Sequence record: MK295204
From: Shigella phage vB_SdyM_006
DNA length: 64,000 bases
Direction: 5' to 3' (one strand)
The notes under the pieces are model-generated. The model was not told the DNA's origin, did no database searches, and worked only from the letters and a program-made list of their open reading frames with translations. The position numbers and the translations under genes are program-made. Shown here piece by piece: positions 4,309 through 60,495 of the stretch. Positions within the stretch are counted from its first letter, which is position 1. Every line of letters starts with the position of its first letter.

Positions 4309-4483
4309 AATAAATATTAAAATCCTCTATAGTATAGAAATAAGAAAACTCTCCCTGTTCAACAGAGATTGTCTCATCATATACATTAGTCGGATCAATT
4401 AAAACTGGTATATTGTACTTCTCTTTTAATAGAAGCTTAATAAGATATGGTAATGCATTTATATCGTTATATTCTTCAATCAT
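4280..4483 (-). CDS. Hypothetical protein (start trimmed to internal Met)
   Basis: ORF track gives 4280-4588, overlapping gp55 by 113 nt; internal Met gives a short overlap typical of this genome. Confidence 0.35.
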
Positions 4484-5027
4484 CGGGGTTAGATTGAGTT
4501 TCTGCTTTAAGTAATTCATAAAAATCATCCAATGTCGGTCCTGTATCATCAGCCTTTTTTGACCCGCTAGATTTAACAGAACTTTCATAAGAGTTTAATT
4601 TATCATATATGTCTTGTATAAACGTTTCGTCTGCAATTTGAGATAAATCTGTATCAAATTCATCATAAACGTTATGGACAAAGTAGCTATATTTTATTGC
4701 CATTTCTTTTCGTTCTTTTTTAATACGCTGAACAAATGCATTAAAACAAGCCTTAGTGATGTAAGCATGTGGATTATTATATTTCTTCTCATCAAAGCCA
4801 TATAAACCTTTTATAGTAGCTTCAATACCGTCCCAATACATTTCTTGTTTCCAATCAGGTGTATATCCAGAAAAGTTATAACGATAGGAAAGGCCTTCAG
4901 CTATAAGCATAATAGCGCGTCCAATAGAATCAGGGATTTTTACCTGATAACCAGCATCATAACAGTCTTGTTTCCACTTACAAATTTCTTTATATAATTC
5001 TTTATTGTTAATATAATTATTCATCAA
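4476..5027 (-). CDS. 55: Late-transcription sigma factor gp55
   Basis: 183 aa (T4 gp55 is 185 aa); sequence resembles T4 gp55; T4-like position. Confidence 0.85.
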
Positions 5028-11423: not shown

Positions 11424-11462
11424 TATAACCCCTATAATTTATCATATAGAGGTATTTATTAA

Positions 11463-25720: not shown

Positions 25721-25759
25721 AAGTTTCTCCTTTGTTTGCTTATGTACGTATTTATTAAA

Positions 25760-33127: not shown

Positions 33128-33204
33128 TGGTACACCTACGGGAATTCGAATCCCGGTTACACGCTCGAAAGGCGTGGGTCCTAGACCACTAGACGATAGG
33201 TGCA
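33128..33204 (-). tRNA. tRNA-Glu (anticodon UUC)
   Basis: Manual fold: acceptor GCACCUA/UAGGUGU, anticodon stem CACGC with loop CUUUCGA, T-loop UUCGAAU, encoded CCA. Confidence 0.7.
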
Positions 33205-33210
33205 TTAAAA

Positions 33211-33302
33211 TGGAGGAGAGTATGGGATTCGAACCCATGGAACAGCGTAACTGTCCAACGGTTTTCAAGACCGTCTCAATAATCCATCTCTGACAACTCT
33301 CC
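33211..33302 (-). tRNA. tRNA-Ser (anticodon UGA), class II
   Basis: Perfect acceptor GGAGAGU/ACUCUCC, anticodon loop CUUGAAA, long variable arm, T-loop UUCGAAU, CCA. Confidence 0.8.
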
Positions 33303-33309
33303 AATATAA

Positions 33310-33627
33310 TTAAAACAGTAGACTATAAACAGTACCTTTACAATCTATAGGTTGTGTTTTTGAATATTCTTTAAATAGATTTAAATAACCAATTTCTTCA
33401 GGTTCCCATTGTCCTTCTAAACCATAACATGAACAATGTGAGCCGTTAACTTCCCAAAATATATCATTACTATCTTTGAAGATTACAGTAGCATACCCAG
33501 AATAATCTTCATAATCGTAATATGCTAAAATGATTTCTTTGTCATTAAGTGAATCCATAGGGATTTGGAATTCATGACAGATGTCTTCTTTTGAAGTAAA
33601 CAGTTCCATAAACACATTAGTTTTCAT
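33310..33627 (-). CDS. Hypothetical protein between tRNA genes
   Basis: ORF track gives 33310-33720, but the N-terminal part overlaps tRNA-Asp; trimmed to internal Met (about 105 aa). Confidence 0.4.
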   Translation of the reverse strand: MKTNVFMELFTSKEDICHEFQIPMDSLNDKEIILAYYDYEDYSGYATVIFKDSNDIFWEVNGSHCSCYGLEGQWEPEEIGYLNLFKEYSKTQPIDCKGTVYSLLF

Positions 33628-33650
33628 ATCAATATCCTCAAAATTAATTT

Positions 33651-33726
33651 TGGCGGTCTTACCGAGAATCGAACTCGGTGCTGTTCCGTGACAGGGAACT
33701 ATGTTAACCAGGTACACCATAAGACC
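33651..33726 (-). tRNA. tRNA-Asp (anticodon GUC)
   Basis: Acceptor GGUCUUA/UAAGACC, anticodon stem GUUCC with loop CUGUCAC, T-loop UUCGAUU, CCA. Confidence 0.8.
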
Positions 33727-33756
33727 TTAAAAATGTACCCATCCGGCTTTCCAGTC

Positions 33757-33857
33757 TGGTGAAGGGTTGTCACCTCTAGTTTAAACCTGCTAGTCAAGTA
33801 ATAATTGCATATCGTCCAATTATCAAAACCGTCTAGGTTATATTACACCACTTCCTA
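33757..33857 (-). ncRNA. Possible small stable RNA in the tRNA cluster (not foldable as a canonical tRNA)
   Basis: About 100 nt between tRNA-Asp and tRNA-Gly, begins with tgg (CCA-like 3' end on minus) and contains local hairpins; T4 carries small stable RNAs in the equivalent position. Confidence 0.2.
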
Positions 33858-33919
33858 GAATACCGTCTAAGCGGACTTGATCGACGTAGATTACACCATA
33901 TACGTCTGATTGTGGAATT

Positions 33920-33993
33920 TGGAGCGATCTACGGGTATCGAACCCGTATCTTCTGGGTGGAAACCAGAAATAATAGCCATTATACTAAGATCG
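33920..33993 (-). tRNA. tRNA-Gly (anticodon UCC)
   Basis: Perfect acceptor GCGAUCU/AGAUCGC, anticodon stem UCUGG with loop UUUCCAC, T-loop UUCGAUA, CCA. Confidence 0.8.
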
Positions 33994-34615
33994 CATATTT
34001 ATTAATAAATCTTCTTGCTTGGGTATGACTTAATCCTATATGTTTAGCAAATTTATTTAAGTTACCTCTTATTGAAATATCAAATGATTTTAATATTTCT
34101 AATCTATAATTAATTTCGTCTTTTGACAATGTAGAGGCATTATTAATAGAAATTTTGTTTTTAGATATATCCGAATGTCTCTTATTTTTAAAACCAAACG
34201 AATTTTTCTTTTTGCTAAAATCATATAATCCGAGTCTAAGTCTTTTCTTAAATGTATTAACTTGTTTACTTATAGTTAATTTAGATTTTGGCAATGAATT
34301 TATATAATCCCAACCACCTTCACCACCAACTTTTAAATTATATGTATTTTTGCTTTTAACAAATTTTTCTGTAACTATTTTGGCTTCATGTATAAACATG
34401 TCATACTTATTTTTATGAAATTTTAAAATAGTTTTTTCAAAATTTTCTTTGCCATATTTTTCTATGGCTTTTTTCAAAATCTTACCTGAACCAAAATATC
34501 CATCTTCTAAATCTTTGGTTTTATGAACACCTATATAAATTTTATTATTTATTTTATTTTTAATTTTGTATGTATAATAAAACATTATAGCCTTATTTAT
34601 CTTTTGGTACTCCAT
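33980..34615 (-). CDS. GIY-YIG homing endonuclease (seg-like) inside the tRNA cluster
   Basis: 211 aa; N-terminal YTYKIKNKINNKIYIGVHKT ... GYFGSG is a GIY-YIG motif; lysine-rich C-terminal DNA-binding region. Confidence 0.75.
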   Translation of the reverse strand: MEYQKINKAIMFYYTYKIKNKINNKIYIGVHKTKDLEDGYFGSGKILKKAIEKYGKENFEKTILKFHKNKYDMFIHEAKIVTEKFVKSKNTYNLKVGGEGGWDYINSLPKSKLTISKQVNTFKKRLRLGLYDFSKKKNSFGFKNKRHSDISKNKISINNASTLSKDEINYRLEILKSFDISIRGNLNKFAKHIGLSHTQARRFINKYAILV

Positions 34616-34779
34616 TCTTTATTAGTTGCTTTATTAACAGCAGTAGAATAAGAATTTTTAATATCTTCTGTAACAGAATAGCCAGTTAACATAGTAGAAA
34701 TTAAAATAACATATCCAAGCATTAATAAAATACAAGATAAAAATCCTGCAATAATAAGAATTGTACCTAAAGTAGTCAT
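34597..34779 (-). CDS. Small membrane protein (trimmed from the 34597-34890 ORF, which overlaps a tRNA)
   Basis: Internal Met yields about 60 aa with one long hydrophobic helix. Confidence 0.35.
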   Translation of the reverse strand: MTTLGTILIIAGFLSCILLMLGYVILISTMLTGYSVTEDIKNSYSTAVNKATNKEWSTKR

Positions 34780-34798
34780 ATTGTTCTCACAAATTATT

Positions 34799-34875
34799 TG
34801 GTGACCCACCATGGAATCGAACCATGCTCCAACGCTTATGAGGCGTTCGCTTTCAACCAGTAAGCTAGAGGGCCT
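34799..34875 (-). tRNA. tRNA with anticodon CAU (Met or Ile2-type)
   Basis: Anticodon stem AACGC/GCGUU with loop CUCAUAA, T-arm CAUGG-UUCGAUU-CCAUG, CCA; acceptor has one mismatch. Confidence 0.65.
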
Positions 34876-34882
34876 TGCAATT

Positions 34883-34966
34883 GGTGGCACCGGGTAGACT
34901 CGAACTACCGAAGGCCGAAGCCTGGAGATTTACAGTCTCCTGTCATTGCCGCTAGACTACGATGCC
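34883..34966 (-). tRNA. tRNA-Tyr (anticodon GUA), class II
   Basis: Anticodon stem GGAGA/UCUCC with loop CUGUAAA, long variable arm, acceptor GGCAUCG/CGGUGCC, CCA. Confidence 0.7.
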
Positions 34967-35011
34967 TTTTCTTATCAATAACGACTAAAAATAATCGTTA
35001 TTAATCAGAAT

Positions 35012-35088
35012 TGGTACACACTACTGGATTCGAACCAGTGACCTACGGTTTAGAAGACCGTTGCTCTATCCATCTGAGCTAAGCATGC
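35012..35088 (-). tRNA. tRNA-Arg (anticodon UCU)
   Basis: Anticodon stem ACGGU/ACCGU with loop CUUCUAA, T-loop UUCGAAU, CCA; acceptor stem has three G-U pairs. Confidence 0.6.
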
Positions 35089-35089
35089 A

Positions 35090-35380
35090 TTATAAGTACT
35101 GTTTAATCAGTTCTTCGTTATTTTTAAAAAGAATAAAAATATTATCACGAACTTCAGTATCTGAGATATGCCATTTCATAGCATCAATTAAAATGTCTTT
35201 TGGGATCATATTATATAAATTATTTAGTAAAGCAATATTATTTATATCAATATCAACTTCAAATAATTCAAAAATACAACACGAAATAGAATCATAAAAA
35301 TCTTTAATGTCTATTTCATACTTAGACAAATTATTTATAAATTCTGTTTTAGCTTGTTCTGGATTATGTGCTTTAAACAT
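35090..35380 (-). CDS. Hypothetical protein
   Basis: 96-aa ORF between tRNA-Arg and tRNA-Trp. Confidence 0.45.
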   Translation of the reverse strand: MFKAHNPEQAKTEFINNLSKYEIDIKDFYDSISCCIFELFEVDIDINNIALLNNLYNMIPKDILIDAMKWHISDTEVRDNIFILFKNNEELIKQYL

Positions 35381-35402
35381 TTTTATTCCTATTATTCTAA
35401 AA

Positions 35403-35477
35403 TGGCAGGCTCTGTAGGAATCGAACCCACGTCTTCGGATTTGGAATCCGGTATTCTACCGACTGAACTAAGAACCT
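35403..35477 (-). tRNA. tRNA-Trp (anticodon CCA)
   Basis: Anticodon loop UUCCAAA, D-arm UAGUUCAGUCGGUAGAAU, T-loop UUCGAUU, CCA. Confidence 0.7.
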
Positions 35478-35478
35478 T

Positions 35479-35562
35479 TGGCGGGCAGTGTAGGATTCGA
35501 ACCTACGTCGTCAAATGACACGGATTAACAGTCCGCTGCTTAATCCACTCAGCCAACTACCC
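35479..35562 (-). tRNA. tRNA-Asn-like (anticodon GUU) with an unusually long variable arm
   Basis: Anticodon arm CGGACUGUUAAUCCG is nearly identical to E. coli tRNA-Asn, but the variable region is about 13 nt (GUCAUUUGACGAC), giving 84 nt. Confidence 0.55.
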
Positions 35563-35859
35563 AATAATTTTTGCATCTTCTGAATAACTAGAAATACTAC
35601 CCCATTCTGAAGTATTAAATGAAACTTTATTTCCGTTTTTGAACTCTATAACTATATTTATATTGTCAACAGAAATCTCATTATCAGATGATTCTCTTTC
35701 TGAGGTTTTTAAATATGTATCCATAGTTTCAATAGTCACTTCTTCTGTTTGAAGAAGAGGTGAATAGTACTCAGCTAAATAAACTTTATTTACAATATCA
35801 CCAAAAATAGTTTTAGCAATATCAGTTAATTTAGTTGTTTCTTTTAATAAATGTTTCAT
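35557..35859 (-). CDS. Hypothetical protein (start trimmed to internal Met)
   Basis: ORF track gives 35557-35898; about 100 aa from MKHLLKETT. Confidence 0.4.
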   Translation of the reverse strand: MKHLLKETTKLTDIAKTIFGDIVNKVYLAEYYSPLLQTEEVTIETMDTYLKTSERESSDNEISVDNINIVIEFKNGNKVSFNTSEWGSISSYSEDAKIIG

Positions 35860-38555: not shown

Positions 38556-39232
<677 letters not shown>

Positions 39233-39252
<20 letters not shown>

Positions 39253-39892
39253 GTTTTACCTTTTTTTGAAAAATTTCTAAAGAATCATTATTTTCAATAA
39301 CAATATCACCTTCTAAAATAGGGAGGTCTTGTTCAGTGATATGGTCATCATTTGTAATTGTATTTTTTTTAATATGGATAATTTTACCTTTATTGTTTCG
39401 AACAGTATCAATTTCATGTACTTGTCGACAATCAGTAATAATAACAACATGACTTCTAGGGATTAATTTATCAATGTAATTGAAAACCATATCTACCCAG
39501 TACATTTTATCCATGCTTACAACAATATCAGTTCCAAGGGTCTGTAGGAACTTTCGAATTGTAAATTCATTATTATTTATAATAGGGATTTCTGGTATAT
39601 CACCTTTAAGACCATGACTTTTTAAATATCGAATACAGCGAATCATATAATCTTCGAATTGTTCTTGTGTCATATTTAATTTATATTCGCGATCAATGCC
39701 ATGTCCGTCAAAGTCATCATAGGTCAATTCAAACCCATTATAGTTTTGCCAATTTATAGACAAAGTGAATTTTAGATAATCGGCAAAAGCCATAGTGTGT
39801 GAAGTAATATTATTTTCTTCACAAATATCTTCAATAAATTTAGCACATGTATCTTTTCCGGAACGTTTTTTACCGGTCAAACCAATAATCAT
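39233..39892 (-). CDS. 1: Deoxynucleoside monophosphate kinase gp1
   Basis: 219 aa; P-loop GLTGKKRSGKDT and overall resemblance to T4 gp1. Confidence 0.85.
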
Positions 39893-40473: not shown

Positions 40474-40664
40474 ATTAGTTTCCTTGTTTTATTAATTTAT
40501 TAAAAGTATAGTATATTCTATATAACTATTAAGTAATAAATTAATAACTATATGTTACTATTTCTAAAGAAATCTGGAGCTGCGCTCCAGAATTTTTATT
40601 ATTTTATTAAGTTCTTTATATATTATATATAACTATTAAGTAATAAATTAATAACTGTACGTTA
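40474..40664. repeat. Intergenic repeat module copy B: promoter-like unit, stem-loop (GGAGC-TGC-GCTCC) plus T-run, second promoter-like unit
   Basis: Same building blocks as 5041-5235 but in a different order. Confidence 0.7.
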
Positions 40665-41483
40665 TTATCTTTTCCAAACTTTAGAAGCTGCAAATCTTGA
40701 ACCTTGAGACATAAATTGCTGAGTAGGCATAAAAATAATATTAGACCAATCTTGTGGTTTAACTTCTATTATAGGGCCTTTAATATGTCCAGGTAAATAA
40801 GCTTTTATCATCTGATCAGAACCATGCATTCCTCTAACACTACTCCAATTAATTTTTAATTTAGTTTTAGAAGAAATGTTACTTGTAGAAGAAAATCTTT
40901 TTAATAGTTCTTCTAAAAATGCTTGTCTGGCTTTAGGTGGTATATAATGAAGATTTAATCCATATAATAATTGATTTCCGTTTCCAGCAGTTTTAGCACC
41001 TAAGAAAATGATCAATGGAAACTTATCCCAATACGGGAGAGTATCTTTATTTTTGGCATCATAAACATAAGTATAAATTTTACCGATTTCTGGTACTTTA
41101 GTTGTTTTTGTTCTTACACCAGTTTTTATAGTTTCTTTAAACCATTTTATAGATTTATTATTAACAGCTGCGCCTTCATTTCTTATTTTTTTCTTTAAAG
41201 TACTTCTAAAGTCATTTACAATTGCAAGTTCACGTTCTCTACGTGATAATTTATGTTTAGATTTACCTTTAATAGCTTCGACTTCTAATGCTTCTTTTAT
41301 TTTATCAGAATACCGACTCATTGCTGATGTGAATGTGCTATATTTTATTCCTTTATATTCAGCAAACTTTTTAGAAGACACAGTTCTTCTAACTTTAGCA
41401 AATTCAACACCTAATTTAATCCAATCTTGTGCTGTTTTAGGTAAAGACATTTCTTCTTCAATTTCAAATATCATCCTTTCCAC
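40665..41483 (-). CDS. 2: DNA end-protector protein gp2
   Basis: 272 aa (T4 gp2 is 274 aa); synteny. Confidence 0.7.
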   Translation of the reverse strand: MERMIFEIEEEMSLPKTAQDWIKLGVEFAKVRRTVSSKKFAEYKGIKYSTFTSAMSRYSDKIKEALEVEAIKGKSKHKLSRRERELAIVNDFRSTLKKKIRNEGAAVNNKSIKWFKETIKTGVRTKTTKVPEIGKIYTYVYDAKNKDTLPYWDKFPLIIFLGAKTAGNGNQLLYGLNLHYIPPKARQAFLEELLKRFSSTSNISSKTKLKINWSSVRGMHGSDQMIKAYLPGHIKGPIIEVKPQDWSNIIFMPTQQFMSQGSRFAASKVWKR

Positions 41484-41920
41484 CCCATGGTCTTTAAAGA
41501 CCTTTCTGTCACTATTTTAAATTTGATATTCATTTTATCCGCTAATTTTTGGGCCGCTTTCCATTTATCACTATTAACCTGGAATGTGTATATTTCTTCC
41601 ATAAATCTTTTTTTAGCCTTAACAGTAATATTAGCAGGTGGTCTAGGTTGTTGGGTTTCTTTAAATGGTTTTACTTCAAATAGAAATTCTTGTCCACTTT
41701 TGAATTTAGCCCAAAAATCCATAAAATATCTTCTTTTTTTGCCATCTGCATTACTAAAGTATGGAATTACGACTTCTTCAGAATTCCACCTAATACAATC
41801 TGGGTTATTATCAAGCCACTTCATAAAAAAGTGTTCCCAAGATGACCTATATGTAATTTTTCTCCAATCACCTTTATATTTGTCTTTATGAACTGGCAAG
41901 TATTTTCCTTTATAAGCCAT
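41471..41920 (-). CDS. 4: Head completion protein gp4
   Basis: 149 aa (T4 gp4 is 150 aa); divergent from gene 53 as in T4. Confidence 0.7.
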   Translation of the reverse strand: MAYKGKYLPVHKDKYKGDWRKITYRSSWEHFFMKWLDNNPDCIRWNSEEVVIPYFSNADGKKRRYFMDFWAKFKSGQEFLFEVKPFKETQQPRPPANITVKAKKRFMEEIYTFQVNSDKWKAAQKLADKMNIKFKIVTERSLKTMGWKG

Positions 41921-41933
41921 AAGTCCACTCCTT

Positions 41934-41941
41934 TATAAATA
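41934..41941 (+). promoter_or_regulatory. Late promoter TATAAATA for gene 53
   Basis: Exact TATAAATA about 30 nt upstream of the gene 53 ATG. Confidence 0.6.
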
Positions 41942-41951
41942 CATATAATAA

Positions 41952-41959
41952 TATTTATA
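41952..41959 (-). promoter_or_regulatory. Late promoter TATAAATA (minus strand) for gene 4
   Basis: Plus-strand tatttata is TATAAATA on minus, about 30 nt upstream of the gene 4 start. Confidence 0.5.
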
Positions 41960-41971
41960 ATAGGGGGTTTT

Positions 41972-42523
41972 ATGATTTTTTCCTTTTTTGATCCTGTAGA
42001 ATATAGAGGAAAACTAACAACCAATATATTCAGAAACTATAAAGTTTATATAAAAAGAGTTTTATCTAATTATAAACTTAAAACATACTATATTTCTGGC
42101 TCACCGAGACCAGAAGAACTTGCTAATGCATTATATGGTAATCCACAACTATATTGGGTCTTATTAATGATCAATGACAATTATGACCCATTCCATGGCT
42201 GGATTAAAGGACAAGAAGCCTCATATCAGAGCGCTATACAACGCTATGAGAACGCAGGAGGACAACAAGTACTATACCATATAGATAATAATGGTGAACG
42301 TTATTATAACCTAGTAGAAGATCCTGATAACCCAGGCCTTTGGTACGATAAAGGCGATAAAGATATGGAACACTTGCAATATAATGGGCCTTTAGCTGCT
42401 ATAGATATTCTTGAAGATTCAATTCTTAAAAACGAAGAACGACGAGAAATAAAAATAATTGACCCTAAAGAAATTCAATCTTTTATTAGTGCAATTATTA
42501 GAGAGATGGAAAAAACACTATGA
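41972..42523 (+). CDS. 53: Baseplate wedge protein gp53
   Basis: 183 aa; MIFSFFDPVEY ... YYISGSPRPEELANALYGNPQLYWVLLMINDNYDP near-colinear with T4 gp53. Confidence 0.85.
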   Translation: MIFSFFDPVEYRGKLTTNIFRNYKVYIKRVLSNYKLKTYYISGSPRPEELANALYGNPQLYWVLLMINDNYDPFHGWIKGQEASYQSAIQRYENAGGQQVLYHIDNNGERYYNLVEDPDNPGLWYDKGDKDMEHLQYNGPLAAIDILEDSILKNEERREIKIIDPKEIQSFISAIIREMEKTL

Positions 42524-44250
42524 ATATCCAAAATTCTTATATCCAACCATTTTTTGGTGTTGTTGAAGATCGAATGGACCCTAAGAAATTAGGACGTGTC
42601 AGAGTTAGAATATATGGAGATCACCCTTTTTCTAAAACTAAAGGTGACGTGGCTGGTTTAGAAACTGAAGATTTATTATGGTTCCAAGTATTATTACCAG
42701 CAACATCTGCTACTGAATCCGGTGTTGGTAATTCTCCAACTGGTATATTAGAAGGCTCTTCAGTTTTTGGCCTATATTTAGACAAATATAAAACTTCAGG
42801 AATTGTTTTAGGGACTTGGGCTGGGATAAGAACAGAAATGCCTAACTACACAGAAGGTTTTTCCGACCCAAATCAACAGTACCCTACTAAACTTGGGAAT
42901 GATTTAAATGATTTATCTCTAGGTGGAAGAATAGGTAAAGAATCTATTGTTAACGTAATTCAAAATGATAATAGAGAAACTGCACCGAACCCATCAAATA
43001 TACCTGCAGGCGAAGAACCTGAAAATAACAGCCCAGAATTGACAATAGAAAAAATGTTACAACGTGACGAAGGCTTACGTTTACGTTGGTACCCAGATAA
43101 TGGATATGCATCTATTGGTATAGGACATTTAATTAAAGCCCAGAAAACATCAGACCCAGATTTAATTAATAAATGGATTTCAGAACTTGTCGGAAGAAAA
43201 GTAACAAACGGAACCATAACAATGGATGAATGTATGTCCATTTTTAAATCTGATATTAAAAAAGTTAAAGATGGAATAGTTAAGCACCCTACTATTGGTC
43301 CGATCTACAAAAAATGTAATGCTTCTAGGAAAATGGCTTTAGAGAACATGGCATATCAAATGGGACTAGGTGGATTAGCTAAATTTAAAAAAACTTTGAG
43401 ATACATGGAAGAAGAAAAATGGGAAGACGCTTATATAAATCTCCAACAATCACTTTGGTTTAGACAAACTAAAGGACGAGCATCAAGGGTTTCTTTGATT
43501 ATTCGTAATGGTAATTTAGAATCATACGGCGAAAAGACCCCTAGTGCCGCTAGGGCGTTCTCTTTACAAAAGAATATAAACATAGAACCTGAAGATCCTT
43601 TTGTCCCTAGCGACTCTAGGGTTATGTTTGAAGAACCTAAAACAGATTATAATAGCCAATACCCATATAATAAAACCTTTGGAACAGAATCAGGTATGAT
43701 TCAAGAATTTGACGATACACCTGGTGCCGAACGTTATAGACTAACACATACTTCAGGAACATACCAAGAAATTTCTCCAGATGGAAGAAATGTACAAAAA
43801 ATAATTGGGGACAATTATAAAATAGTCCAACAAGACGACCATATATTAGTCCAAGGCGATGTTAAACTTGTTATTGGCGGTAATTCTAATGTTTACATTA
43901 TGGGGTCATTAAACCAAACAATTGATGGAAGTATAAATCAAACTGTTAGAGGAAATGTTGTTCAACATGTAGAAGGTAATGTTAAAGCGACAATAGACCA
44001 AACGGCCGATATTCTTGTTAAAGAAGAAGCTATGATAACAGTTGAAAAAGATTTAACAGTTAATGCAAATCAAAATGCGGAAATTAATGTTAAAGAAAAA
44101 GCCACGGTTAATGCAGAAAATATTTCTGTTAACGCAGAGAAGACTATGAAGTTTAAAGCTGAAGATGTTGATTTTAGTGCAGTTAAAACATTTTCTGTTG
44201 ATTCTGGTGTTCTTACTAAAATTACAGGTGCTAATGTACAGGTGGGATAA
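42520..44250 (+). CDS. 5: Baseplate hub / cell-puncturing device with lysozyme domain gp5
   Basis: 576 aa; N-terminal OB domain (FFGVVEDRMDPKKLGRVRVRIYG), lysozyme domain (LQRDEGLRLRWYPDNGYASIGIGHLI) and C-terminal beta-helix repeats. Confidence 0.9.
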   Translation: MNIQNSYIQPFFGVVEDRMDPKKLGRVRVRIYGDHPFSKTKGDVAGLETEDLLWFQVLLPATSATESGVGNSPTGILEGSSVFGLYLDKYKTSGIVLGTWAGIRTEMPNYTEGFSDPNQQYPTKLGNDLNDLSLGGRIGKESIVNVIQNDNRETAPNPSNIPAGEEPENNSPELTIEKMLQRDEGLRLRWYPDNGYASIGIGHLIKAQKTSDPDLINKWISELVGRKVTNGTITMDECMSIFKSDIKKVKDGIVKHPTIGPIYKKCNASRKMALENMAYQMGLGGLAKFKKTLRYMEEEKWEDAYINLQQSLWFRQTKGRASRVSLIIRNGNLESYGEKTPSAARAFSLQKNINIEPEDPFVPSDSRVMFEEPKTDYNSQYPYNKTFGTESGMIQEFDDTPGAERYRLTHTSGTYQEISPDGRNVQKIIGDNYKIVQQDDHILVQGDVKLVIGGNSNVYIMGSLNQTIDGSINQTVRGNVVQHVEGNVKATIDQTADILVKEEAMITVEKDLTVNANQNAEINVKEKATVNAENISVNAEKTMKFKAEDVDFSAVKTFSVDSGVLTKITGANVQVG

Positions 44251-52375: not shown

Positions 52376-52383
52376 TATAAATA
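52376..52383 (+). promoter_or_regulatory. Late promoter TATAAATA for gene 9
   Basis: Exact TATAAATA about 24 nt upstream of the gene 9 ATG. Confidence 0.6.
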
Positions 52384-52406: not shown

Positions 52407-53258
52407 ATGCAAGAATTCAAAACACTTATTGACACCGGTATTAAAGGAAATTCTTCAACTGGGGATATTTTATACGACGGTGGCGAAAAACTAAATATCA
52501 ATATGAACAATATCTATAATACTTTTGGTGATTATAGATTATTTGATGAAACACTTCAAGGCCAAGGAAAACAGAAACTTCATGCCACTGGGTATTACCA
52601 AAAACATACAAGAATGTATTATTTAGATACTCCTGAAGGCATAGAAATGGGTTCACTTCATGATGTTGATACAAGTTCAGGTAAATTAGATATTAAACTT
52701 CCAGCTGCTAAATTGGGCGAAGGAATTGTCATTATCAATAGTAATGGGTCTTTAAGTAAAGACACCCCTGTAATATTATCTGCTTTTGGTTCTGATACTA
52801 TTTTAGGTCATGGTGCAAGATTATCACTTGAAATGCCTAAAACAAAAACTACACTATGGTGCACACGTCAAGACCAAGGTATTGGTGTATGGGAATACAG
52901 AATAGAATCTATGTTTGGCAATCATCAACTTGCTGTAGATTCTGACTTATTACTAGATACATCCGAAAAAACCATAGAACTTGGAAACGTTGACCACTAC
53001 AATACAATAAAACTACTTCTACATGGTGTATCTCAAAACCAAAAGTCGTTTAAAAGCTCAGAAATGTTGATATCTATTTTACATTCTTCAGGCGAAGTTT
53101 ATAAAACAGAATACGCAGTTTTAAAAAATAATGGAGATTTGTTTTCAATAGATTTTGTTATAGATTCTGGAATTTTAAAGGCTAAAGTAAAATCATTATC
53201 AGGAAACGTAGCTTTTTCTATTAAATCTATTGGAACTATTAAGGTAGGAGCCGTATGA
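52407..53258 (+). CDS. 9: Baseplate protein gp9 (long tail fibre socket)
   Basis: 283 aa (T4 gp9 is 288 aa); synteny. Confidence 0.8.
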   Translation: MQEFKTLIDTGIKGNSSTGDILYDGGEKLNINMNNIYNTFGDYRLFDETLQGQGKQKLHATGYYQKHTRMYYLDTPEGIEMGSLHDVDTSSGKLDIKLPAAKLGEGIVIINSNGSLSKDTPVILSAFGSDTILGHGARLSLEMPKTKTTLWCTRQDQGIGVWEYRIESMFGNHQLAVDSDLLLDTSEKTIELGNVDHYNTIKLLLHGVSQNQKSFKSSEMLISILHSSGEVYKTEYAVLKNNGDLFSIDFVIDSGILKAKVKSLSGNVAFSIKSIGTIKVGAV

Positions 53259-59666: not shown

Positions 59667-60410
59667 ATGTATGATAGTAGCTTATTTGCAAAATTAGAAA
59701 ATGATTCTGGTTATCATAAAACAAATGAGAGTCAGATACTGAACCCTTATGTCAATTTTATGAAGCACGGAAACACACAAGAATTAGCTGATGTTTTAGT
59801 TCAAGAAACAATACAAATGAGAGGTTTAGAATTATATTATATTCCTAGAGAATACGCTAATTTAGACCTTTTATTTGGAGAAGATCCAAATTCTAAATTT
59901 ACTAAAGCTTGGAAATTTGCAGCATATTTAGATTCATATGAAGGGTATTCCGGTGACAACTCTTTTATTTCGTCTTTTGGGTATCAAGTTAATGACCAAG
60001 TTAAATTCATTATAAATCCATCTTTGTTCAAGCATCAAGTTAATGGTAAAGAACCTATTGAAGGCGATTTAATTTATTTTCCTATGGACAATTCATTATT
60101 CGAAATAAATTGGGTCGAACCGTATACACCGTTTTATCAAGTTGGAAAAAATGCACAACGCCAAATCGTAGCAGAGAAATTCATTTATTCTGGTGAAGAA
60201 CTGAATCCTGAATTACAAAGAAATGAAGGAATAGAAATAGATGAGTTTAGTGTTTTAGACTTAGAACCAGTTAAAAACTTAGATGGCTTAGCTGACATTA
60301 CATCAGACGAATACTCAGAAGTTAAGCAGATTAATAGTGAAGCCAAAGAATTCGTTCAACCATATTATGTTGGGACTGGGCGAGGAACGCCGTTTGATGA
60401 CTTTGAATAA
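59667..60410 (+). CDS. 14: Neck protein gp14
   Basis: 247 aa (T4 gp14 is 256 aa); synteny. Confidence 0.8.
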
Positions 60411-60495
60411 ATAAGTATATAAACAAATTAAATGATGGGGGTGGGTTATTTTTGGACACTGGTACAATAGCTCGTTAAGAAGGTACATAGTATTA

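Follow-up and report, generated by a model that had tools for sequence, protein, structure and literature searches.

Two predicted T4-type late promoters interleaved between the divergent genes 4 and 53 of Shigella phage vB_SdyM_006

The short region between the divergent genes 4 and 53 of Shigella phage vB_SdyM_006 (sequence record MK295204) very probably contains two gp55-dependent late promoters of the T4 type, which would share one 51-bp control region. The DNA analyzed is a single stretch of 64,000 nucleotides, here termed the window, and it belongs to a T4-like phage of the genus Bragavirus (Proteus phage relatives). The promoter pair is ordinary and already known in kind, as it is annotated at the orthologous site of the congener Pm5461. 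Its two boxes are interleaved, and this layout has been kept very widely among T4-like phages.

The gene order of the window matches the T4 map between gene 46 and approximately gene 15. A simple gene call gives a long block of minus-strand genes that ends at 41920 and a series of plus-strand virion genes that begins at 41972. The gap between them (41921–41971) is the sole strand switch that separates long gene blocks within the 64-kb window. It is 51 bp long and 76% A+T (24% G+C), and it is flanked by open reading frames that match the PHROG families of gp4 and gp53, in agreement with the preliminary description, which had placed a 51-bp divergent 4/53 region here. Gene 4 is the first gene of a leftward late unit (4-2), and gene 53 is the first gene of a rightward unit (53-5 and onward). 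The next open reading frames outward encode, according to their PHROGs, the DNA end protector (gp2) and the baseplate hub/lysozyme (gp5), respectively.

Read along the plus strand, the gap has the order AAGTCCACTCCTT-TATAAATA-CATATAATAA-TATTTATA-ATAGGGGGTTTT. The late-promoter box TATAAATA is found exactly at 41934–41941 on the plus strand, and its reverse complement at 41952–41959 places the same box on the minus strand; both sets of coordinates had been given earlier and are exact to the base. The distance between box and start codon, previously put at about 30 nt, measures 30 nt for gene 53 and 31 nt for gene 4. All eight bases of both boxes are non-coding, and each box sits closely upstream of, and correctly oriented toward, a gene orthologous to a T4 late gene. 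The interval between the boxes (41942–41951, CATATAATAA; 10 bp) is 90% A+T and forms the downstream segment for both promoters. The features of the junction, together with the gene for the late sigma factor, are listed in Table 1.

Table 1. Features of the gene 4/gene 53 junction and the late sigma factor gene, in window coordinates
Feature	Position	Strand	Basis or remark
Gene 55 homologue, late sigma factor	4476–5024	−	PHROG 234, E 1.5e-62
Gene 4 homologue, head completion/head closure, 149 aa	41471–41920	−	PHROG 218, E 5e-61; 64% identical to T4 gp4
Gene 4 start-codon complement CAT	41918–41920	− (gene)	ORF list
Shine-Dalgarno GGAG, gene 4	41928–41931	−	Sequence
Gene 53 putative late-promoter box TATAAATA	41934–41941	+	Predicted positions −13 to −6; numbering of PMC1524935
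Predicted start, gene 4	41946 (A on − strand)	−	Inferred from box at −13 to −6 (PMC1524935)
Predicted start, gene 53	A41947	+	Inferred from box at −13 to −6 (PMC1524935)
Gene 4 putative late-promoter box TATAAATA	41952–41959	−	Exact consensus match
Shine-Dalgarno GGGGG, gene 53	41963–41967	+	Sequence; invariant in Bragavirus relatives
Gene 53 homologue, baseplate wedge subunit, 183 aa	41972–42523	+	PHROG 232, E 1.5e-66

In T4, a late promoter lacks a −35 element and consists only of TATAAATA at positions −13 to −6 and the A+T-rich stretch next to it (PMC1524935, PMC2988020). The A+T-rich segment downstream of the box melts when the promoter opens (PMC2988020), and within the bubble, which extends from −12 to +2, gp55 reads the non-template strand (PMC7892883). 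The gp55 homologue encoded in the window is 63% identical to T4 gp55 over 174 aa. The window does not extend to the genes for gp33, gp45, and the clamp loader, for which the nearest relative serves as the proxy genome: phiP4-3, with 97.5% identity in a comparison of 2 kb (41000–43000). Its annotation includes a sliding clamp (phiP43_222), both subunits of a clamp loader (223/224), and a late promoter transcription accessory protein (gp33, phiP43_022). The box pair indicates that Bragavirus phages use the T4 late-transcription code unchanged.

According to this code, host RNA polymerase core would act late in infection with the phage sigma factor gp55 and the co-activator gp33, tethered to the gp45 sliding clamp, and would open the DNA at TATAAATA. 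From the plus-strand box, transcription would start at about 41947 and proceed rightward into gene 53, gene 5, and the baseplate genes. From the minus-strand box, it would start at about 41946 and proceed leftward into gene 4 and gene 2. The predicted leaders are 25 nt long for gene 53, with the GGGGG site, and 26 nt long for gene 4, with the GGAG site, and both are predicted to be unstructured. The start positions follow the consensus rule and could be off by 1–2 nt, which would change whether the two transcripts abut or overlap. A search of the literature for mapped RNA 5′ ends at the 4/53 junction of T4 yielded no such paper.

The layout of the pair had been described as back-to-back, and in this respect the description needs correction. 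In the classes that Beck and Warren are said to have drawn up in 1988, strict back-to-back promoters have non-overlapping polymerase sites, with each element on the side of its own gene. At the 4/53 junction, the gene 53 box lies on the gene 4 side and the gene 4 box lies on the gene 53 side, so that neither element is on the side of its own gene and the two promoters are interleaved and overlapping. The order on the plus strand is the gene 53 box, the predicted gene 4 start, the predicted gene 53 start, and the gene 4 box. Each box occupies predicted positions +6 to +13 of the other transcript, and the predicted starts (41946 and 41947) are adjacent base pairs. If the bubbles extend from −12 to +2 (PMC7892883), they would occupy 41935–41948 and 41945–41958 and overlap by 4 bp. 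Because the predicted open complexes are interleaved and overlap, two polymerases would be mutually exclusive on one DNA molecule. Moreover, activation by the T4 clamp needs a nick in the non-transcribed strand (PMC2988020, PMC7892883), and this rule, carried over from T4 biochemistry, would assign oppositely oriented clamps to the two promoters.

The spacer between the boxes sets how the two transcripts would meet. Under the box-to-start rule, the 10-bp spacer of the window places the predicted starts next to each other and yields transcripts without gap or overlap, while the 7-bp spacer of T4 and RB69 leaves a 3-bp gap between them. A spacer of more than 11 bp would make the 5′ ends overlap, as for many marine relatives.

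Within Bragavirus, the 41000–43000 stretch is 87–90% identical to SJ_PmiM, PM2, and Pm5461, and both boxes are invariant in five genomes. About 10 bases between each box and its start codon vary, and the spacer carries a 1-bp indel (10 vs 9 bp), with 9 bp in three other Proteus phages. At the T4 junction, the sequence reads CAT-N11-TATAAATA-N7-TATTTATA-N13-ATG, in a gap of 47 bp, and the T4 starts would be expected close to 77362 (+) and 77358 (−) on the AF158101 numbering. RB69 has the same box pair with a 7-bp spacer in a gap of 61 bp. Among closer relatives in IMG/VR, the arrangement TATAAATA-N(2-15)-TATTTATA is found in 20 of 21, and the single exception has extra DNA inserted upstream of gene 4. 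The same layout, with common variants at −13, is found in Salmonella phage S16, an Acinetobacter phage, an RB49-like phage, and cyanophage S-PM2.

A wider survey covered 98 distinct gp4 loci reached through gp4 alignment. A crossed pair was defined as a plus-strand TAAATA followed within 30 bp by a minus-strand TAAATA, in the 90 nt upstream of gp4; this fixed interval was used for classing because the start calls of the upstream gene are imprecise in many marine contigs and give over-long intergenic values. The crossed core pair is present in 72 of the 98 loci, and the back-to-back order in 5. Shuffled sequences give 0.3% for each order, and the coding control gives 0 of 98. The crossed layout, in which each box falls inside the initially transcribed region of the other promoter, holds from T4 to marine T4-like phages, with spacers among the surveyed relatives of 0–23 bp. 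The pair is widely conserved but not universal: at the RB43 junction, one recognizable box can be found by eye, of the CTAAATA type and pointing to gene 53, and the list of Nolan et al. 2006 has no predicted promoter there.

Several relatives differ in the immediate neighborhood of gene 4. In one locus (L022), extra coding DNA upstream of gene 4 accounts for the lack of a promoter pair next to the gene. The pair is also absent directly upstream of gene 4 in Klebsiella phage KP182; in this phage the gene 4 match is split in two pieces, and the annotation beneath it is that of an HNH homing endonuclease. In marine contigs such as L049, L051, L066, and L090 (about 1490–1503 in locus coordinates), the leftward late box overlaps the gp4 start codon in the sequence TATTTATG, which is the reverse complement of CATAAATA. 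The rightward box CTAAATA lies 16–23 bp upstream in these contigs, so that the 5′ ends of the two transcripts would be complementary to each other. In KVP40-like Vibrio phages and Aeromonas phages (L027, L029, L035, L040, and L041), gp4 is divergent from gp48, the baseplate tail tube cap, and not from gp53. The junction of these five loci contains two CTAAATA boxes that are truly back-to-back, with short leaders of about 12–15 nt.

Comparison with known systems identifies the 4/53 box pair as the orthologue of the gene 4/gene 53 late-promoter pair of T4. The two junctions share their flanking genes, the exact 8-bp consensus on both strands, the interleaved order, and similar leader lengths; they differ in the spacer (7 bp in T4 vs 10 bp in the window), and their flanks and spacers are unalignable. 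In Pm5461 (vB_PmiM_Pm5461, KP890823), regulatory features at 71480–71487 (+) and 71497–71504 (−) are the orthologous sites, with identical 8-mers and the same genes, although the spacer is one base shorter and the sequence between boxes and start codons is different. According to the GenBank record, the Pm5461 promoters were “discovered using MEME with manual verification” (method in PMC4923195), which is a computational approach. For RB69, Additional file 5 of Nolan et al. 2006 lists the predicted late promoters Pl:80613 (+) and Pl:80684 (−), and these were verified to bracket the exact boxes of the RB69 4/53 junction as an overlapping divergent pair. RB69 differs from the window in its gap of 61 bp, in the TTG start of gene 53, and in a gene 53 leader that is about 12 nt longer. 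The earlier Pm5461 and RB69 entries for the 4/53 pair are in-silico predictions.

The lists of Nolan et al. 2006 hold further overlapping divergent pairs, likewise predicted in silico, for example at 144977/145030 in RB49 and 122785/122835 in Aeh1, and the architecture therefore recurs. KVP40-like Vibrio phages and some Aeromonas phages share with the window a divergent late-promoter pair upstream of gp4, but there the neighbor is gp48 rather than gp53, the box is CTAAATA, the boxes point apart, and the leaders are about 12–15 nt. The preliminary description had assigned one late-promoter box to each gene, and this assignment is supported by conservation from T4 to marine T4-like phages, by the gp55 homologue, and by the earlier in-silico annotations.

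The box itself is not enriched in this DNA. TATAAATA has 10 matches in the window compared to 18.1 ± 4.2 in dinucleotide shuffles, and a search for window-wide enrichment against these shuffles gave none. Since the 8-mer is under-represented, the argument rests on placement and conservation. Non-coding DNA makes up 6.7% of the window and holds only 3 of the 10 matches, 2 of them at the 4/53 junction. Coding DNA contains 7 matches where about 23 are expected from base composition, an approximately 3-fold depletion that is consistent with the pattern expected if stray late promoters are selected against.

Two boxes might nevertheless meet by coincidence in A+T-rich spacer DNA, particularly where the window as a whole is 31% G+C, the gap has even less, and the 8-mer lacks window-wide enrichment. 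When these 51 bp are shuffled, however, both boxes appear together in only 0.047% of the mononucleotide and 0.4% of the dinucleotide versions, which retain the base composition of the boxes themselves; the composition of all non-coding DNA taken together predicts about 0.009 boxes for each strand of a 51-bp stretch. The pair is moreover kept in the 72 of 98 loci noted above, many times the frequency in shuffles, and given the conservation data a chance origin is effectively refuted. It is also highly improbable that the inverted repeat serves as the site of a dimeric regulator, or as a cruciform or hairpin, instead of as promoters. The gap does contain a perfect 9-bp inverted repeat, TTATAAATA-N10-TATTTATAA, and the single-stranded DNA folds at −5.2 kcal/mol (z = −1.85). 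Yet this fold is weak, with A-T pairs only, and 10 of 200 shuffles fold as well. The range of spacers among relatives fits poorly with the fixed geometry of a dimer, and the arms never co-vary but always equal the genome-wide late-promoter consensus. The symmetry arises because two units of box and Shine-Dalgarno sequence are mirrored. A structured DNA or RNA element was accordingly rejected: the inverted repeat is just the two boxes, the DNA hairpin is weak, and the leaders are predicted to be unstructured.

Equally improbable are promoters of the sigma-70 type (early) or of the MotA type (middle) in place of late promoters. A TTTATA-18-TATAAT match at 41932–41961 on the plus strand agrees at 10 of 12 positions, and a perfect TATAAT lies in the spacer at 41944–41949. 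For the longer match, however, the transcript would begin about 4 nt upstream of the ATG, past the Shine-Dalgarno sequence, and the TATAAT in the spacer has no TTGACA-like hexamer 17 bp upstream when the sequence is read by eye. The region contains 5 sigma-70 matches compared to 6.7 ± 1.9 in shuffles, and reading by eye reveals no sequence in it that resembles a MotA box. Neither class of promoter agrees well with a spacer whose sequence is not conserved in T4 or RB69, or with genes 4 and 53 being virion genes. Both were rejected as candidates: sigma-70 matches are no commoner than in shuffles, and a transcript from the longer match would lack the ribosome-binding site.

Somewhat less remote, although still improbable, is the reading in which only one box is active, its partner being a passenger of the palindromic layout or occluded, with the partner's gene expressed by read-through. 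The predicted open complexes overlap and would hence compete, RB43 appears to have retained a single box, the one directed at gene 53, and the T4 late sites that have been listed are not all proven active (PMC2988020); in the review of Geiduschek and Kassavetis, this applies to activity in vivo among 50 such sites. Both boxes, however, stay exact in nearly all relatives, very distant ones included, despite changes in spacer and flanks. Each of the two genes also heads its late unit, and no other consensus box on the same strand lies nearby. Two active late promoters therefore constitute the favored reading of the junction.

Whether the interleaving of these two late promoters has a function of its own is a separate matter. 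The residual novelty of the pair lies in how very widely its interleaved and mutually exclusive layout is conserved, and this layout may or may not matter for regulation. The geometry could be a selected regulatory device that acts as a switch, beyond compact packing, but this is rather unlikely. Because the open complexes would exclude each other and need clamps of opposite orientation, the direction in which each DNA copy is replicated or nicked would decide how such a switch divides polymerase between the head-completion and the baseplate units. One of the phages with gp48 as neighbor (L041) fits a true back-to-back pair into 52 bp, with leaders of 13–15 nt, and interleaving is thus not forced by the length of the gap. 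The promoter pair is of value mainly for correct annotation, since it shows where the leftward (4, 2) and rightward (53, 5, baseplate) late units begin. The 4/53 junction is also well suited, as a natural example, to asking what part clamp orientation and promoter competition play in dividing late transcription between the strands.

Other features of the window bear on late transcription elsewhere. The 191-bp non-coding gap between the gp2 and gp3 homologues (40474–40664) was scanned and contains no perfect late box; the nearest sequence is TAGAAATA at 40559–40566 (−), 85 nt upstream of gene 3. A third non-coding perfect TATAAATA is found at 52376–52383 (+), 23 nt upstream of the gp9 homologue (52407–53258, baseplate wedge tail fiber connector). 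The box, immediately preceded by a T-run (ggtctccttttttg) where the gp8 homologue ends, probably represents a further late promoter and possibly adjoins a terminator. A perfect box at 39574–39581 (−) lies inside the dNMP kinase gene (gene 1 homologue, 39233–39892), 321 nt upstream of the homologue of the tail-fiber chaperone gene 57A (38992–39252), and is a possible internal late promoter.

Three perfect copies of TATAAATA, all on the minus strand, are found at 35239–35246, 35332–35339, and 35655–35662, within 430 bp inside a tRNA cluster. The cluster comprises nine tRNA genes on the minus strand (33128–35562). Two of these boxes lie inside a small open reading frame of unknown function (35090–35380), about 150–245 nt upstream of tRNA-Arg/Tyr/Met, and one lies 93 nt upstream of tRNA-Asn/Trp. 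These boxes may be late promoters for tRNA sub-clusters. The same cluster contains a homing-endonuclease-like open reading frame at 33980–34615 (−) (PHROG 314, E 2.7e-44), whose 3′ end overlaps the predicted tRNA-Gly. Finally, AATAAATA, a common late-box variant with A at −13, is non-coding at 11453–11460 (−), 25749–25756 (−), and 60406–60413 (+), and these sites are candidate variant late promoters. Two of the copies lie 28–29 nt upstream of the start codons of small minus-strand genes in the early region, and one lies just after the stop of a gene that ends at 60410.
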